DNA of 64,000 nt from Dehalococcoidia bacterium (GTDB taxonomy: Bacteria; Chloroflexota; Dehalococcoidia; Lucifugimonadales; GCA-2712585): assembly GCA_965207845.1 (NCBI GenBank), contig CBDBNU010000002.1, positions 805,129 through 869,128 of the forward strand. The letters run 5' to 3'. The first letter of the stretch is position 1, and each line of letters opens with the position of its first letter. Position numbers and translations under genes: made by a program. Positions 15,301 through 61,996 of the stretch are shown one piece after another. The notes under the pieces are model-generated. The model searched no databases. It was not told the origin of the DNA and saw only the letters and a list, made by a program, of their open reading frames with translations.

Positions 15301-15382
15301 TGGTAGGCGGGGAATGGTGAAGGGGAGGAGGGGTGGTGTGATAGAATGGGCGAGAATTTCACAGAAAGGGAGTGAAGCTTTC

Positions 15383-17278
15383 GTGACGCATTTCAATAGA
15401 GGAGCCACTTTCACTGAAGAAGTACAGTTGCCTGATGACCCGCTCATTGACCTTCTGGCGCAGACTAACGCCAAGGTAGAGCATTTTGACCTTTCGTCGG
15501 ATGGGCAGAAGATTGCGTATTCGTCTGCCGAATCCGGGGGATATGACCTGTGGGTGTGTGACATCGACGGCGGGAACAATCGTCGAGTAGTGGCGATGTA
15601 TCCAGAGGAGTGTCTCAACCCTTCCTGGTCACCCGACGGGGAGTGGATTGCGTATACGTCCCGGTACGACGCATTCAAGGTCAGGGCGGACGGCTCGGAG
15701 CCGCCGATCAACCTCAGCTACGGACATGGCCCTTCCCGCGGGCACGAATTCATCCGATGGACGCCGGACGGAAAGCGGATTGTTTACGTGACGGGAGGTT
15801 CCAACGGATACAACCAGGTAGTGTCGCTGTCTACGGACATTCCGACGGGGAAGGTGCAGCCCCACTTCATCACCAACGAGGAGGCCAACAGCACCGACGT
15901 ATTCGTGTCGCCGGACGGGAAGTATGTGACGTTTATGTCCGACAGGTCCGTGTACGAGGACTTCAAGCGGATGGACGTGTGGATTGCGCCGATTGAGGGT
16001 GGATTAGCCCGGTGCATGACTCCGTATACGTTGAACAACTATGAGTACCGGCCGAGGTGGTCTCCCGATGGTAAGAAGCTGGTGTTCACCTCGGACCGCT
16101 CGGGCTGGCGTCGGGTGGGGACAATTGACGTGGAGAGCGGGGAGATCAACTTCCTGACGGATGAAGAGTGCGACCAGTACAATCCGCGGTATTCGCCGGA
16201 CGGCAAGTGGGTAGCCTACGTGGCCAACAAGGAGTGGAGCTTCCACATTATGAAGGTAGCGTCGGACGGCTCCGGCGATCCGATTCAGCTTACCCAAGGC
16301 GAGGCGATTCACGGCGGGATTGACGCGTACCAGGTGAGGGGTTCGATTCGGTGGACGCCCGACAGCAAGAGCATTCTCTACACGCACATGGACCACGCTA
16401 CGACTTCGGACCTGTGGTTGATTTCAGCGGACGGCGGGGAGCCTGAACAGGTTACTCATCACATGCCGAAGGCTCTGGAGGATTTTCCGTTTGTGAAGCC
16501 GACGCTCATCCATTACAAGTCCAAGGATGGGCTTGAGGTGCCGGCGTGGTTGTACAGGCCTGAGGGCGCGGAGGGGCGGACGCCGCTGGTGATTTATGCG
16601 CGGGCGAATACCAAGGGTCTGCACGTGCGGGCCTTCTATCCGTACATCCAGTACTGGGTACACAAGGGGTATTCGGTGATTGCGCCGCTGGTGCGGGGTT
16701 CGGCGGGACTGGGCAAGCAGTACGAGTTCCTGAACTTCGGGGACTGGGGCGGGGGAGACATCGACGACTTCGCATATGGCGCGTACTACCTGATTGAGGA
16801 GGGTCTGGCCGACGCGGACAAGGTGGTGATGCACGGCGGGTCGACGGGCGGATACTTCACCCTGTGCATGATATATCGTTACCCGGACCTGCTGAATGCG
16901 GCGGTGTGCTTCTATGGGCCGCCGGACCTGATTCACTCGGACAGGTACTCCACGGGCGGCGGAAAGCCGGTGCTTGGGGACGTGGTGGCGGGCGACCGGG
17001 GCGGGCCGGACATGGCGCCGGACCACTGGCGAGAGCGTTCCGCCATTTACAACCTGGACAAGGTGAAGACGCCGCTATTGATTCTGTGGGGAGACCGGGA
17101 CGGAGTTCGGATCAGCATGGCGGACGATTACTTCCGCGCTTCCAAGGAGCTAGGGTTGTACGCGGAGTATATCCAGTATAACTGCGAGCCCCACGGCTGG
17201 TACCACTGGCGTCCGGAGAACGTGCGGGACTCGATGCGTCGAATGGCGGCGCATTTCAAGAAGTTCACCGGGGTGTAG
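15383..17278 (+). CDS. S9 family peptidase with TolB-like beta-propeller
   Basis: PD40 repeats (WSPDG), nucleophile GGSTGG, triad Asp (GDRDG) and His (EPHG). GTG start chosen. Confidence 0.88.
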   Translation: MTHFNRGATFTEEVQLPDDPLIDLLAQTNAKVEHFDLSSDGQKIAYSSAESGGYDLWVCDIDGGNNRRVVAMYPEECLNPSWSPDGEWIAYTSRYDAFKVRADGSEPPINLSYGHGPSRGHEFIRWTPDGKRIVYVTGGSNGYNQVVSLSTDIPTGKVQPHFITNEEANSTDVFVSPDGKYVTFMSDRSVYEDFKRMDVWIAPIEGGLARCMTPYTLNNYEYRPRWSPDGKKLVFTSDRSGWRRVGTIDVESGEINFLTDEECDQYNPRYSPDGKWVAYVANKEWSFHIMKVASDGSGDPIQLTQGEAIHGGIDAYQVRGSIRWTPDSKSILYTHMDHATTSDLWLISADGGEPEQVTHHMPKALEDFPFVKPTLIHYKSKDGLEVPAWLYRPEGAEGRTPLVIYARANTKGLHVRAFYPYIQYWVHKGYSVIAPLVRGSAGLGKQYEFLNFGDWGGGDIDDFAYGAYYLIEEGLADADKVVMHGGSTGGYFTLCMIYRYPDLLNAAVCFYGPPDLIHSDRYSTGGGKPVLGDVVAGDRGGPDMAPDHWRERSAIYNLDKVKTPLLILWGDRDGVRISMADDYFRASKELGLYAEYIQYNCEPHGWYHWRPENVRDSMRRMAAHFKKFTGV

Positions 17279-17569
17279 GTCTGACGAATCGTTAGGGCAA
17301 GATTGTTCTTGTGGGGGATGATTTCGGTGACGGAATTCACCCCCATCCCTTCGGGAGACTCAGGGCAGGCTCCAACCTTCCCCCGTCGAGGGGGAAGGGG
17401 TTTTTTAGGAAGAATAGGGGCGGGTATGGAACCCGCCCCTATTGTGTTGAGGGATATTGCGTGTGTGGGCCTGCGTGAGGGTGATGGGTGTCGGGGTGGG
17501 CGAGGACCGGGGGCGAGATTCTTCGTCGTGGAGCCTCCTCAGAGTATCTGTGTTGAGAATCAAGGGTAT

Positions 17570-18511
17570 TCAGGTAGAAGAGGAGGGATTGGGGACCCAG
17601 GGAGTGCCGCGTTGGGCAACGGCGCTGAGGAGCAACAGGAGCTTACGCATGACGGCGGTGAGGGCGAGTTTGCCGGACTTGCCGCGACGACGGAGTCCTT
17701 GATAGAAGTTTTTGAGGTCGTAGTTATGTCGAACGGCGGAGAGGGCAGCCATGTAGAGGGCGCTGCGCACCTTGGCGCGTCCACCGCGGATGGAGCGATA
17801 GCCCCTTCGGGCGCCGCTGTCCTTGGACCAGGGGGCGAGGCCTACGAGGGAGGAGAGCTGTCTGCCGTTGTAGAGGCCCAACTCTGGGAGGTAGACGGCC
17901 AGTATGGCGCTGGTCTGCTGGCCCACGCCTGGGACACTCTGGTAGAGATCGGTCTTGCGGGTCAAGAGTTGGCACTGGTGCAATCTCTTGTGGCACTCCT
18001 TGTCGAGGCGCTGGATCTCGTTATCGAGCCATTTGATGTGGCGCTGCATAGAGGAGCGAGCGTCTTTGGCAACGCCTTTGTCGAGCCGGTTCTTCTCCCG
18101 GGTTCGCTCCTGTACCAGCTGTCGACGACGGCTTAGCAGGTCTCTGAGTTCCTCCTCCTCGGTGTTCGGAGAGATGGTGTTGGACAACTCAAAGGTCTCT
18201 CCGTAGCGGGAGAGCATTTGGGCGTCTAGGCGGTCGGTCTTGGCCTGGTTACCCACTATACGGGCGAAGTTGCGTACCCGGTTGGGGTGGATTGGGTGCT
18301 CATTGATCTCCGAGTCCCTGACGGCTTTGACGAGGGGTCTCTCATAGCCGCCGGTGGTTTCGTATACCAGGTGGGTGACGCTGCAGCTTCGCAACCAGCC
18401 CAGCAGCCGGGCTATCTCCTTTTGGTTGTTGTCAAAGCGCTGGGGTGAACCTCCTGACACTGACACGTCCAGGCTTCTCTTACCCACGTCCACTCCCGCT
18501 ACTACTTTCAC
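17570..18511 (-). CDS. IS110 DEDD recombinase/transposase
   Basis: GVDVGK, YETTG and KTDRLDA (DEDD), then SVPGVG and LAPWSKDSG (catalytic Ser). GTG start follows GAGGAGG. Confidence 0.95.
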   Translation of the reverse strand: MKVVAGVDVGKRSLDVSVSGGSPQRFDNNQKEIARLLGWLRSCSVTHLVYETTGGYERPLVKAVRDSEINEHPIHPNRVRNFARIVGNQAKTDRLDAQMLSRYGETFELSNTISPNTEEEELRDLLSRRRQLVQERTREKNRLDKGVAKDARSSMQRHIKWLDNEIQRLDKECHKRLHQCQLLTRKTDLYQSVPGVGQQTSAILAVYLPELGLYNGRQLSSLVGLAPWSKDSGARRGYRSIRGGRAKVRSALYMAALSAVRHNYDLKNFYQGLRRRGKSGKLALTAVMRKLLLLLSAVAQRGTPWVPNPSSST

Positions 18512-18539
18512 TTTGTGCACCTCCTCATCTATAATGCTT

Positions 18540-18718
18540 CTTGTCCTCCACACTTGCGATACGGGCCATTATGCCCAGGCATCCGTTCGGAGCGACATAG
18601 CGGCGTGAGGGGTGTCCAACTCTGAACGGCGCAGGGACCTTACTTGCAGTTCCCTCGCCCAATGACAGTCGACGCGCCCCTCTCGCCCGCCCTCCAGATT
18701 GGCCTATCTGGGGGGCTT
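18540..18718 (-). ncRNA. Predicted IS110 bridge RNA (copy 1)
   Basis: 5' hairpin, target-binding loop (UGUCAUU / UCAGA) and donor-binding loop (ACGGAUGC / GCAAGU). Ends approximate. Confidence 0.8.
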
Positions 18719-18799
18719 TTGCAATCATACAAATGACATGTGGGTGGAGAGGGAGGGGGAATTGGGGGTTAGGCGGTAGCATCCGTAGCTAAATCAGGG

Positions 18800-19260
18800 G
18801 ATTCTGGATTCCGGCTTTCGCCGGAATGAGGGTTATGCAGGAGTCTTCGTCGAGGGGTGAGGGAAGAAGAGTGGGCCCCCGCGTTCGCGGGGGAACGGGA
18901 GGGTTGGGCGGTGACGACGAGATGTGTCGTGGGTAGAGGGGGAGGGCGGTTCGCGAACCGCCCCTACGGGAGGTTGGTTGTGGGCAGGGGGTTGATTCCT
19001 GCCTTTTCAGGAACGAGATAGTGGGGGGATATCCTCATCCCTTCGGAAGACTCAGGGCAGGCTCTAACTTCCTCCCAGGATGGAGGGCTTTGCGTAACTG
19101 CTGAATGCCCCATCCACACCACCCGAATCACCCCCATCTCAATCTTCCCCCATCGAGGGGGAAGAGGCTAAGAGACGCCGACGGGGGGTTGGGCGAGGAC
19201 CGGGGGCGAGATTCTTCGTCGCGAGGCCTCCTCAGAATGACATGTGGATGGAGGGGGAGG
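18800..19260 (+). repeat. Mosaic cluster of palindromic repeats including an empty IS110 target (19208-19242)
   Basis: CTGGATTCCGGCTTTCGCCGGAATGA, GGGCCCCCGCGTTCGCGGGGGAAC, GGGCGGTTCGCGAACCGCCCCTAC, a truncated M1 MITE and GAGATTCTTCGTCGCGAGGCCTCCTCAGAATGACA. Confidence 0.85.
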
Positions 19261-20017: not shown

Positions 20018-20331
20018 GGGTCGTCTCTCCTGGGTTGGGTGGTTCGTGTGCCTATTGTACAGGAAAGGCTCAATCTTCCCCCATCAAGGAGAGTTTTCAC
20101 CCTTACCCCTTTGACAGACTCAGGGCAGGCTTTAGTCCTCTCCCTCAGAGAGAGGGGGTTTTGCGAAGGTCTACGTTGAGGAGAAGAGTGGGCCCCCGCG
20201 TTCGCGGGGGAACGGGAGGGTGGTTCGCGAACCGCTCCTACGGGAGAGGGGAGCACAGAAGGGCGGCTACTGGTACGAGATTCTTCGTCGCGGGGCCTCC
20301 TCAGAGTATCTGTGTTGAGAATCAAGGGTAT

Positions 20332-21273
20332 TCAGGTAGAAGAGGAGGGATTGGGGACCCAGGGAGTGCCGCGTTGGGCAACGGCGCTGAGGAGCAACAG
20401 GAGCTTACGCATGACGGCGGTGAGGGCGAGTTTGCCGGACTTGCCGCGACGACGGAGTCCTTGATAGAAGTTTTTGAGGTCGTAGTTATGTCGAACGGCG
20501 GAGAGGGCAGCCATGTAGAGGGCGCTGCGCACCTTGGCGCGTCCACCGCGGATGGAGCGATAGCCCCTTCGGGCGCCGCTGTCCTTGGACCAGGGGGCGA
20601 GGCCTACGAGGGAGGAGAGCTGTCTGCCGTTGTAGAGGCCCAACTCTGGGAGGTAGACGGCCAGTATGGCGCTGGTCTGCTGGCCCACGCCTGGGACACT
20701 CTGGTAGAGATCGGTCTTGCGGGTCAAGAGTTGGCACTGGTGCAATCTCTTGTGGCACTCCTTGTCGAGGCGCTGGATCTCGTTATCGAGCCATTTGATG
20801 TGGCGCTGCATAGAGGAGCGAGCGTCTTTGGCAACGCCTTTGTCGAGCCGGTTCTTCTCCCGGGTTCGCTCCTGTACCAGCTGTCGACGACGGCTTAGCA
20901 GGTCTCTGAGTTCCTCCTCCTCGGTGTTCGGAGAGATGGTGTTGGACAACTCAAAGGTCTCTCCGTAGCGGGAGAGCATTTGGGCGTCTAGGCGGTCGGT
21001 CTTGGCCTGGTTACCCACTATACGGGCGAAGTTGCGTACCCGGTTGGGGTGGATTGGGTGCTCATTGATCTCCGAGTCCCTGACGGCTTTGACGAGGGGT
21101 CTCTCATAGCCGCCGGTGGTTTCGTATACCAGGTGGGTGACGCTGCAGCTTCGCAACCAGCCCAGCAGCCGGGCTATCTCCTTTTGGTTGTTGTCAAAGC
21201 GCTGGGGTGAACCTCCTGACACTGACACGTCCAGGCTTCTCTTACCCACGTCCACTCCCGCTACTACTTTCAC
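20332..21273 (-). CDS. IS110 DEDD recombinase/transposase
   Basis: Translation identical to copy 1. Confidence 0.95.
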   Translation of the reverse strand: MKVVAGVDVGKRSLDVSVSGGSPQRFDNNQKEIARLLGWLRSCSVTHLVYETTGGYERPLVKAVRDSEINEHPIHPNRVRNFARIVGNQAKTDRLDAQMLSRYGETFELSNTISPNTEEEELRDLLSRRRQLVQERTREKNRLDKGVAKDARSSMQRHIKWLDNEIQRLDKECHKRLHQCQLLTRKTDLYQSVPGVGQQTSAILAVYLPELGLYNGRQLSSLVGLAPWSKDSGARRGYRSIRGGRAKVRSALYMAALSAVRHNYDLKNFYQGLRRRGKSGKLALTAVMRKLLLLLSAVAQRGTPWVPNPSSST

Positions 21274-21301
21274 TTTGTGCACCTCCTCATCTATAATGCT
21301 T

Positions 21302-21480
21302 CTTGTCCTCCACACTTGCGATACGGGCCATTATGCCCAGGCATCCGTTCGGAGCGACATAGCGGCGTGAGGGGTGTCCAACTCTGAACGGCGCAGGGAC
21401 CTTACTTGCAGTTCCCTCGCCCAATGACAGTCGACGCGCCCCTCTCGCCCGCCCTCCAGATTGGCCTATCTGGGGGGCTT
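21302..21480 (-). ncRNA. Predicted IS110 bridge RNA (copy 2)
   Basis: Same sequence as the copy 1 non-coding end. Confidence 0.8.
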
Positions 21481-21610
21481 TTGCAATCATACAAATGACA
21501 TTTGGGTTGCGGGGGAACGGGAGGGTTGGGTGGTATTGACTATGGTGGAGGGTTGGTACAGAATCCCACTTGGGGAAGGGTGGCGGCGTAGCAACAGTTG
21601 TGGAGGGGTG

Positions 21611-35117: not shown

Positions 35118-35152
35118 GAGATCCTTCGTCGCGGAGCCTCCTCAGGATGACA
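35118..35152 (+). repeat. Variant of the IS110 target repeat (empty)
   Basis: GAGATCCTTCGTCGCGGAGCCTCCTCAGGATGACA. Confidence 0.85.
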
Positions 35153-41790: not shown

Positions 41791-41992
41791 GAGATTCTTC
41801 GTCGCGGGGCCTCCTCAGAATGACATTTGGGTTGGAGGGGGAAGGGTGGAGAGGGGGAACGGGGAGACCCTCAACCCTTCGGAAGACTCAGGGCAGGCTC
41901 TAACCTTCTCCCAGGACGGGAGAAGGGAGGGAACGGGTAGGGAGGCCCCCCCACTACTAGATTCTTCGTCGGGGGGCCTCCTCAGAATGACA
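41791..41992 (+). repeat. Repeat cluster with two empty IS110 targets (41791-41825, 41958-41992)
   Basis: Two copies of AGATTCTTCGTCGNGGGGCCTCCTCAGAATGACA around a CCCTTCGGAAGACTCAGGGCAGGC unit. Confidence 0.88.
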
Positions 41993-55060: not shown

Positions 55061-55095
55061 GAGATTCTTCGTCGCGGAGCCTCCTCAGAATGACA
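55061..55095 (+). repeat. Empty IS110 target repeat
   Basis: GAGATTCTTCGTCGCGGAGCCTCCTCAGAATGACA. Confidence 0.88.
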
Positions 55096-59664: not shown

Positions 59665-59699
59665 GAGATTCTTCGTCGTGGAGCCTCCTCAGAATGACA
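59665..59699 (+). repeat. Empty IS110 target repeat within a segment paralogous to the flanks of IS copy 3
   Basis: GAGATTCTTCGTCGTGGAGCCTCCTCAGAATGACA. Flanks match 60683-60773 and 61963-61986. Confidence 0.9.
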
Positions 59700-60423: not shown

Positions 60424-60799
60424 GCAGTGGTGACATTCTCCGATCACTGCAGCTTAAGAGACATTGGAGAGCCGGATTGGGGTGAAAGAGTCACCGGAGG
60501 CATATCTTTTCGCGGAGGGATGCTTTCGTGCAGGGAGCAGAATTGGTTCCCGTATACGCGGGGTAGGGAGGGATCGCCGAATCTCTTCGACGAGTTCAGA
60601 GGAGGTCTTAAGGGACTTCCCCATAAAAGGGGAAGGGTGAAGATTGGGAAGGTTGACGCTAAGGTTGAGGTAGGGTGTGGCTAGGGTATTGGTTCCTGTC
60701 TTCGCAGAAACAAGAAGAGGGGGAGGGTGGTTCTCTACGGCAACGAGATTCTTCGTCGCGGGGCCTCCTCAGAGTATCTGTGTTGAGAATCAAGGGTAT

Positions 60800-61741
60800 T
60801 CAGGTAGAAGAGGAGGGATTGGGGACCCAGGGAGTGCCGCGTTGGGCAACGGCGCTGAGGAGCAACAGGAGCTTACGCATGACGGCGGTGAGGGCGAGTT
60901 TGCCGGACTTGCCGCGACGACGGAGTCCTTGATAGAAGTTTTTGAGGTCGTAGTTATGTCGAACGGCGGAGAGGGCAGCCATGTAGAGGGCGCTGCGCAC
61001 CTTGGCGCGTCCACCGCGGATGGAGCGATAGCCCCTTCGGGCGCCGCTGTCCTTGGACCAGGGGGCGAGGCCTACGAGGGAGGAGAGCTGTCTGCCGTTG
61101 TAGAGGCCCAACTCTGGGAGGTAGACGGCCAGTATGGCGCTGGTCTGCTGGCCCACGCCTGGGACACTCTGGTAGAGATCGGTCTTGCGGGTCAAGAGTT
61201 GGCACTGGTGCAATCTCTTGTGGCACTCCTTGTCGAGGCGCTGGATCTCGTTATCGAGCCATTTGATGTGGCGCTGCATAGAGGAGCGAGCGTCTTTGGC
61301 AACGCCTTTGTCGAGCCGGTTCTTCTCCCGGGTTCGCTCCTGTACCAGCTGTCGACGACGGCTTAGCAGGTCTCTGAGTTCCTCCTCCTCGGTGTTCGGA
61401 GAGATGGTGTTGGACAACTCAAAGGTCTCTCCGTAGCGGGAGAGCATTTGGGCGTCTAGGCGGTCGGTCTTGGCCTGGTTACCCACTATACGGGCGAAGT
61501 TGCGTACCCGGTTGGGGTGGATTGGGTGCTCATTGATCTCCGAGTCCCTGACGGCTTTGACGAGGGGTCTCTCATAGCCGCCGGTGGTTTCGTATACCAG
61601 GTGGGTGACGCTGCAGCTTCGCAACCAGCCCAGCAGCCGGGCTATCTCCTTTTGGTTGTTGTCAAAGCGCTGGGGTGAACCTCCTGACACTGACACGTCC
61701 AGGCTTCTCTTACCCACGTCCACTCCCGCTACTACTTTCAC
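60800..61741 (-). CDS. IS110 DEDD recombinase/transposase
   Basis: Translation identical to copy 1. Confidence 0.95.
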   Translation of the reverse strand: MKVVAGVDVGKRSLDVSVSGGSPQRFDNNQKEIARLLGWLRSCSVTHLVYETTGGYERPLVKAVRDSEINEHPIHPNRVRNFARIVGNQAKTDRLDAQMLSRYGETFELSNTISPNTEEEELRDLLSRRRQLVQERTREKNRLDKGVAKDARSSMQRHIKWLDNEIQRLDKECHKRLHQCQLLTRKTDLYQSVPGVGQQTSAILAVYLPELGLYNGRQLSSLVGLAPWSKDSGARRGYRSIRGGRAKVRSALYMAALSAVRHNYDLKNFYQGLRRRGKSGKLALTAVMRKLLLLLSAVAQRGTPWVPNPSSST

Positions 61742-61769
61742 TTTGTGCACCTCCTCATCTATAATGCTT

Positions 61770-61948
61770 CTTGTCCTCCACACTTGCGATACGGGCCATT
61801 ATGCCCAGGCATCCGTTCGGAGCGACATAGCGGCGTGAGGGGTGTCCAACTCTGAACGGCGCAGGGACCTTACTTGCAGTTCCCTCGCCCAATGACAGTC
61901 GACGCGCCCCTCTCGCCCGCCCTCCAGATTGGCCTATCTGGGGGGCTT
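61770..61948 (-). ncRNA. Predicted IS110 bridge RNA (copy 3)
   Basis: Same sequence as the copy 1 non-coding end. Confidence 0.8.
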
Positions 61949-61996
61949 TTGCAATCATACAAATGACATGTGGGAGGAGGGGGAAGACTAGAGGGA

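Follow-up and report, generated by a model that had tools for sequence, protein, structure and literature searches.

The closest described system is IS621 of E. coli, whose bridge recombinase and bridge RNA have been known since 2024 (Durrant et al., PMC11208160; Hiraizumi et al., PMC11208158). According to the cryo-EM structures, residues D11, E60, D102, D105 and S241 of this recombinase form a composite active site (PMC11208158). Two guide segments of the RNA, LTG and LDG, read like the top DNA strand and pair with the bottom strand, while the top strand is the partner of RTG and RDG (PMC11208160, PMC11208158). In the numbering of IS621, which we use throughout (left arm 1-7, core 8-9, top-strand cut after 9), position 9 is almost always T, while position 8 varies more and a TT core is functional (PMC11208158). 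Cognate handshake pairing is reported to hinder exchange in this system (PMC11208158) and to set directionality. For elements of the IS621 type, a promoter that is incomplete while the element is integrated is described as normal (PMC11208158). Further literature consulted includes PMC13626964 and 10.1101/2025.10.25.684509.

The present analysis concerns a stretch of 64,000 nucleotides (hereafter the window) of a 3.47-Mb genome. It contains three copies of an element (Table 1) that is very probably an insertion sequence of the IS110 group, IS621 type, active in recent times and with a bridge RNA of about 175 nt encoded in its left end. For the bridge-RNA part of this reading, sequence, covariation and homology agree. 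The whole genome carries six copies, five of them identical across the 1186-bp query and one at 99.9%, and all of them have intact 313-aa reading frames. An extra right-end fragment found at a contig end is probably part of the same copy as that at the end of contig C1. The comparison of three filled sites with empty sites sets the ends of the element at TGTATG... and ...ACAGATACT, with an ambiguity of one shared T. The left end measures 220 nt (18731-18512), the right end, core included, 27 nt (17569-17543). This long left end and the covariance-model match that it contains place the element in the IS110 rather than the IS1111 group. A megablast search of the element against a plasmid collection gave no match.

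Table 1. Positions of the element copies, of the gene, promoter boxes and candidate bridge RNA of copy 1, and of target sites in the window, with other IS110-family genes of the same genome
Feature	Position	Strand	Basis or remark
IS110-group element, copy 1	17543..18731	minus	1189 bp; from RD TGTATGA... to ...ACAGATA-CT; filled versus empty sites
Donor core CT of copy 1	17544-17543	minus	counted inside the element
Copy 2	20305..21493	minus	identical to copy 1; covariance-model match 21303-21449
Copy 3	60773..61961	minus	identical to copy 1; covariance-model match 61771-61917
Recombinase gene, 313 aa	17570..18511	minus	GTG start; Pfam, NCBIfam, IS621 alignment
Shine-Dalgarno GAGGAGGT	18519..18526	minus	7 nt ahead of the GTG start
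Candidate -10 box TATGAT	18724..18729	minus	left end; sequence reading
Candidate -35 box TTGATT	17558..17563	minus	right end; sequence reading
Left donor and donor core ACAGATA-CT	17543..17551	minus	
5' stem-loop CCCC-CCAGAU-AGGCCA-AUCUGG-AGGG	18690..18715	minus	fold
Target-binding module	18607..18682	minus	fold, covariance-model register, guide/target table
Outer stem of target module	18682-18670 with 18616-18607	minus	
LTG ACUGUCA-UU	18669-18661	minus	
Inner hairpin of target module	18660-18628	minus	
RTG GUUCAG	18627-18622	minus	
Core-binding AG of target module	18621-18620	minus	
Handshake UU of target module	18619-18618	minus	
Donor-binding module	18543..18596	minus	fold, covariance-model register, guide/DNA table
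Stem of donor module	18596-18588 with 18549-18543	minus	
LDG ACGGAUG-CC	18586-18578	minus	
Inner hairpin of donor module	18576-18563	minus	
RDG GCA	18557-18555	minus	
Core-binding AG of donor module	18554-18553	minus	
Handshake UG of donor module	18552-18551	minus	
Left target and target core CATGTCA-TT (positions 1-9)	18732..18740	minus	flank, outside the element; empty sites ...ATGTCATT^CTGAGGAGG
Right target CTGAGGAGG (positions 10 onward)	17534..17542	minus	flank; filled/empty comparison
Unoccupied target site TGTCATTCTGAGGAGG	19227..19242	minus	
Other five unoccupied target sites	35137-35152, 41810-41825, 41977-41992, 55080-55095, 59684-59699		
Further IS110-family DEDD genes	C3:1408465, C2:35227, C2:126700, C2:119125, C1:217509, C1:221798, C1:111395		other lineages, same genome

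All the copies share one orientation and one insertion point (marked by a caret) within a REP-like repeat, (C)ATGTCA-TT^CTGAGGAGG. The left flank of every copy ends in ...(C)ATGTCATT and the right flank reads CTGAGGAGGC(C/T)CC(G/A)(C/T)GACGAAG(A/C)ATCT.... The preliminary description of this locus had proposed TGTCATT^CTGA as insertion site. This site is real, since the empty form ATGTCATT^CTGAGGAGG occurs six times in the window and 106 times genome-wide at two mismatches or fewer over 16 nt. The exact 12-mer TGTCATTCTGAG is present 77 times in the genome, compared to 0.41 expected by chance. Because the flanks are uniform and the empty copies many, the target is a dispersed REP-like repeat. 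This repeat (...CCCACATGTCATTCTGAGGAGGCCCCGCGACGAAGAATCTCG...) is about 45 nt long and has more than 100 copies in the genome. Kindred repeats with other middle parts, GTCATT-CCCGCGAAAG... and GTCATT-GCGAGGCGC..., are abundant in the genomes that carry two relatives of the element, L001 and L002 respectively.

Several observations were made on the surroundings of the element and on the assembly. Two of the three contigs of the genome (C1 and C2) terminate inside or beside a copy of the element, which probably caused these assembly breaks. Besides the six copies, the genome carries seven more IS110-family DEDD genes belonging to other lineages, with open frames of 312-385 aa. Copy 1 adjoins a 654-aa ORF (15314-17278, plus strand) that combines beta-propeller-like repeats with a C-terminal hydrolase-like part. 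Just upstream of copy 1 (18777-18878) lie short palindromic repeats, for example CATTCCGGCGAAAGCCGGAATCC, which belong to another abundant repeat family and show a very high summed contig depth (3605 in the public run X1). The material mapped to the window from public runs (X1, X3, X4 and X14) consisted of contigs only, which are uninformative on starts, ends and expression. Two joints in these contigs, 17542->18732 (which skips 1189 nt) and 17543->18734, look like an empty site. Since their sides are only 21-22 nt long and more than 100 paralogous empty sites exist, they do not indicate excision of copy 1. A third joint, 17564->18654, has 27-nt sides and depths of 69 (X1) and 41.7 (X3). The assembled genome contains no such junction, which may derive from a deletion or be an artefact of the assembly graph.

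The recombinase matches PF01548 (DEDD_Tnp_IS110, E = 9.9e-24) and PF02371 (E = 1.5e-17) of Pfam, as well as the NCBIfam model NF033542, "IS110 family RNA-guided transposase", with 200.6 bits for a cut-off of 140. Its best solved relatives in a phmmer search are IS621 (8wt6, E = 1.7e-36) and ISCro4 (9t56, E = 1.4e-35). In the alignment with IS621, residues D8, E51, D93 and D96 of the N-terminal RuvC-like DEDD domain stand opposite D11, E60, D102 and D105, and S232 of the C-terminal Tnp domain (motif KDSGA) stands opposite the catalytic S241. A longer ORF of 327 aa, starting at 18553, was rejected because its start lies inside the donor loop, has no Shine-Dalgarno sequence before it and precedes a protein whose alignment with IS621 begins at residue 5 of the 313-aa form. 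The protein had been called compact, but with 313 aa it is not notably so compared to the PDB chains of IS621 (328 aa) and ISCro4 (341 aa).

For comparison, relatives were searched in 401 genomes of the same class. A protein match with E ≤ 1e-30 was obtained in 37 of them, including the genome of the window, and 60 regions were taken. A search of Dehalococcoidia MAG contigs added two more loci, L001 and L002 (61% and 49% protein identity), which are the nearest relatives found. From these 62 loci and the window, 30 elements were scored, i.e. one per element family per genome plus the single copies. The set leaves out (i) further copies of the same element within one genome, (ii) L015-L017, L060, L034 and L036, which are the same elements as L007 and L028, (iii) the partial matches L051 and L057, the latter at a contig end, and (iv) L056, in which neither donor-loop anchor nor right-end motif was found. 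Copies within a genome define ...ACAGTTG-CT and CT-TGTATCTT... as the ends of the relatives, while the junctions of single-copy relatives were deduced from conserved end motifs.

The two ends of the element would together carry a promoter. Joined to each other (RE-LE joint), they read TTGATT-17 nt-TATGAT, a candidate promoter as far as the sequence alone can be read, and the same split arrangement is found in 22 of the 30 elements with at least four of six matches per hexamer. On the minus strand of the integrated copy, a search for a promoter-like site found none, and among the public sequencing runs recorded as RNA, none containing the element was found. Both results would speak for a relic, whose left end once encoded a bridge RNA but whose copy is now untranscribed or immobile. 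We consider this very unlikely since the incomplete promoter of the integrated state is the normal condition of IS621-type elements (PMC11208158), the six copies are identical over the query or, for one, 99.9% identical with intact 313-aa frames, and the catalytic residues, stems and guides are all intact. A recently active element remains the preferred reading.

The minimum free energy fold of 18535-18730(-) consists of a 5' hairpin followed by two modules, in each of which an outer stem leads through an internal loop to an inner hairpin. With -87.2 kcal/mol (z = -3.57), it is more stable than all of 200 shuffles. This is the three-part layout that the preliminary description had drawn. The 5' hairpin that it claimed is located at 18715-18690, and the four segments that it named lie on the minus strand at 18667-18661 (TGTCATT), 18625-18621 (TCAGA), 18586-18579 (ACGGATGC) and 18557-18552 (GCAAGT), as it had said. 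Its attribution of the locus to an IS621-type bridge RNA with a DEDD/Ser recombinase also holds, since structural covariation, guide/target covariation, RNA homology and catalytic residues agree. Rfam 15, searched over 17400-18900 with E up to 10, returned no bridge-RNA family and four chance-level matches to lncRNAs or sRNAs.

Covariation was searched for in the left ends of 27 relatives. Their RNAalifold consensus shows compensatory changes in 16 of the 28 predicted pairs. This consensus also pairs UUGC of LDG with GCAA of RDG, a pairing that was left out of the model because these columns never vary. Without the invariant guide-guide pairs, 97.8% of the cells of the structure are paired, and a shift of the partners by 1-3 columns lowers this value to 37-51%. 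Both sides change in 15 of 24 pairs, and none of 500 shuffles reaches any of five measures. A covariance model, which had been proposed as a check of the initial reading, was built from the relatives alone (about 40% identical) and searched over the 64-kb window, L001 and L002. It gave five matches in total, corresponding to the three copies of the window and to the expected places in L001 and L002. Those in the window (18541-18687 and, for copies 2 and 3, as listed in Table 1) are on the minus strand and full length, with 25.4 bits and an E value of about 1e-4 by a rough short calibration. The alignment to the model places ACUGUCAUU, GUUCAG-AG, ACGGAUGCC and GCAAG in the loop-strand columns of the relatives. 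MAFFT misaligned the target loops of the window, L001 and L002; the guides were set from the folds and then confirmed by the covariance-model alignment.

The complementarity between guides and target could equally be read from DNA, and single-stranded circular intermediates are mentioned in recent preprints. The matching segments might then act as DNA, either as subterminal protein-binding sites or as DNA-pairing sites, and the fold would be a by-product of palindromic ends. This explanation is even less probable than a relic. Stems stay paired through G.U pairs, which work only on the minus (RNA) strand (for example, one stem pair is U-G in 8 of the 27 elements), and 15 pairs carry compensatory changes. 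Furthermore, the module lies downstream of the conserved candidate split promoter, and in the homologous IS621 the RNA has been directly shown to be the guide (PMC11208160).

The guides of this RNA were compared with the target (CATGTCA-TT-CTGAGG) and the donor (ACAGATA-CT-TGTATGA) of the window. LTG (ACUGUCA-UU) matches five of the seven non-core positions of the left arm and both core positions. RTG (GUUCAG) forms four Watson-Crick pairs and one G.U pair with CTGAG. The adjacent AG is fully complementary to the donor core CT and forms a wobble with the target core TT. On the donor side, two G.T wobbles are required for LDG, whose second core-binding base (C) mismatches T9, as in most relatives, while RDG (GCA-AG) pairs with CT-TGT via one wobble. 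The three differences between guides and donor, initially described as A-to-G changes, are indeed all an A in the DNA for a G in the RNA. A second variant of the repeat, ACTGTCATTCCGAGC, is present at 16 sites of the genome and contains none of the six insertions. This variant matches LTG at 9/9 positions, better than the used sites, and mismatches RTG at position 11, next to the core, in ACTGTCATT-CCGAGC.

The fit between guides and targets was scored over 13 positions (seven of the left target arm and six of the right one), with a slide of LTG by 1-2 bases for cognate and non-cognate targets alike. In the 30 elements, the guides score 10.2/13 on their own target and 5.8 on those of others, and the own target comes first in 22 elements (17 without ties), although such counts overstate independence because the elements are related. 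The guides of the window rank their own target above those of all 29 other elements, without any tie. Of the eight elements whose target does not come first, six lose only to near-identical targets of sister elements, and L014 and L047 fit their flanks poorly. The sequence beyond the right end of L014 starts with TGTAT..., like a left end, and could be a tandem or nested copy. On the donor side, LDG tracks the left donor arm: ACAGUUG faces ACAGTTG in 25 of the 30 elements, ACGGUUG faces ACGGTTG in L026 and ACGGAUA faces ACGGATA in L001, while the match involves G.T wobbles in the window, L002 and L055. The handshake bases follow the pattern of IS621, pairing with position 7 of the non-cognate DNA: the first handshake base of the TBL pairs with donor position 7 in 30/30 elements and that of the DBL with target position 7 in 28/30. 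The element had also been credited with a specificity of its own. Such specificity is ordinary in a family for which REP targeting and thousands of bRNA-target pairs have been published (PMC11208160, PMC11208158).

The two nearest relatives, both from Dehalococcoidia MAGs, share with the window the left target GTCA-TT, the donor AC(A/G)GATA-CT-TGTATG, the LTG ..GUCAUU, the handshake U. and the split of cores between TT and CT. Their right targets and RTGs differ from those of the window, and in each case fit the REP variant present in the same genome. RTG and right target vary in concert: UUCAG with CTGAG in the window, GCGGG with CCCGC in L001 and CUCGC with GCGAG in L002. The empty site predicted for L001, GTCATT+CCCGCGAAAG, is found 30 times as an exact match in its own genome and 65 times at two mismatches or fewer, compared to one for a reversed-pattern control. 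For L002, the predicted empty site TGTCATT+GCGAGGCGC has 42 exact matches in its own genome and 131 at two mismatches or fewer, compared to three for the control. That the guide matches are due to chance, the left end being merely a structured 5' leader of the transposase mRNA, is hardly conceivable, for although the matches span no more than 7, 5-6, 8 and 6 nt, with three wobbles among them, this idea is already contradicted by a register fixed by the covariance model from the relatives, by an own-target score above all 29 non-cognate ones, and by the covariation of RTG with the right target in L001 and L002, whose genomes do contain the predicted empty sites.

By analogy with IS621, the element would leave its site as a circle. 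The joining of its right and left ends would assemble the sigma-70-type promoter TTGATT-17 nt-TATGAT, which would drive the bridge RNA. According to sequence, covariation and homology, LTG of the target loop corresponds to the top strand TGTCA-TT and pairs with the bottom strand, while RTG (UUCAG-AG) pairs with the top strand (C/T)T-CTGAG; in the donor loop, RDG (GCA-AG) pairs with CT-TGT. A tetramer of the 313-aa DEDD + Ser recombinase would then, judging from the IS621 structures, cut the top strands after position 9 and exchange them. The outcome is an insertion at one fixed point, and in one orientation, of the REP-like repeat. In 6/6 copies, TT of the target core is retained at the left junction and CT of the donor core at the right one, as top-strand exchange after T9 predicts. 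The sole, indirect sign of RNA-dependent, reprogrammable recombination consists of the six near-identical copies at one site type.

The cores deserve further consideration. In IS621, target and donor share the same core dinucleotide, CT, whereas here the right junction has CT and the left junction and empty sites have TT. The core had initially been taken to be the single shared T; relatives with CT on both sides indicate that a dinucleotide (TT in the target, CT in the donor) describes it better. This deviation stays within the tolerance of the family because position 8 is less conserved in IS621 and TT cores work there. Unlike cores are found in the window, L001 and L002, while the 27 other scored elements have CT on both sides, and cognate handshake pairing is possible in 3/3 of the former compared to 0/27 of the latter. 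A literature search on unlike natural cores found no paper naming them, which is weak evidence. It is conceivable, although we would not bet on it, that these three elements form a natural subfamily of bridge recombinases that join unlike cores (TT target and CT donor, with T9 shared and A at position 7) and whose RTGs track the REP variants of the hosts. If so, the junctions (left TT, right CT; 6/6 copies and both relatives) would record a top-strand exchange after T9 that fixes the product. This would fit the copy-out or top-strand models under debate for IS621 and CazIS110, and the rule against cognate handshake pairing could be relaxed.

The element can now be compared with the known systems. 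Like IS621, it has (i) a recombinase with a DEDD RuvC-like domain and a Tnp domain with a catalytic Ser, (ii) a long left end and a short right end, (iii) a predicted RNA, about 175-177 nt long, in which a 5' stem-loop precedes the target and donor loops, (iv) an LTG of 7 + 2 nt, a core-binding AG in both RTG and RDG and handshake dinucleotides, and (v) a candidate promoter split over the RE-LE joint and a REP-type target. Its donor, ACAGATA.CT.TGTAT, resembles that given for IS621, ACAGTAT.CT.TGTAT (10.64898/2026.08.31.748434). Unlike IS621, it comes from a Dehalococcoidia-class bacterium and its protein is only distantly similar, as the phmmer E value given above indicates. Furthermore, its target core TT and donor core CT have T9 in common but differ at position 8, while both are CT in IS621, and position 7 is A in both its target and its donor, so that the first handshake base can pair before and after exchange. 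Its RTG pairs with five right-target bases beyond the core, one of them by wobble, whereas the native RTG of IS621 has 4 nt with the core included.

The Dehalococcoidia-class relatives L003-L062 (37-44% protein identity over the aligned part; ends ACAGTTG-CT and CT-TGTATCTT) have the same two-module RNA as the window, with the same loop lengths and invariant core-binding AG, as well as the candidate split promoter. However, they have CT cores on both sides, and their left donor arm is ACAGTTG instead of ACAGATA. L053 and L039-L045 also insert into repeats of the type GTCATTC...GAATC, but at other positions: two bases further on for L053 (TGTCATT-CT^GAGCG) and at the far arm for L039-L045 (...GAGGAAT-CT^). 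Several IS110 lineages hence exploit one family of REP-like repeats at different positions, with guides that follow host-specific repeat variants. The recombinase family and guide logic are also those of the IS1111-group/seekRNA systems (Siddiquee et al.; PMC11208160). Nevertheless, in IS1111 elements the RNA is located in a long right end and the subterminal inverted repeats are longer, whereas here the right end extends about 26 nt past the stop codon and the RNA lies in the left end.

As read from its copies, the element appears to be an evidently active bridge recombinase of the class Dehalococcoidia with readable target, donor, guides and handshake, and with more than 100 natural sites in its own genome. 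For engineers, it would offer a natural configuration in which a TT target core faces a CT donor core, the donor guides contain G.T wobbles and position 7 is the same in both partners. The element might already figure among the IS110 elements tabulated in the supplement of Durrant et al. 2024. Overall, it adds a member to a known system rather than constituting a new one, and the mechanism as known from IS621 is unchanged.
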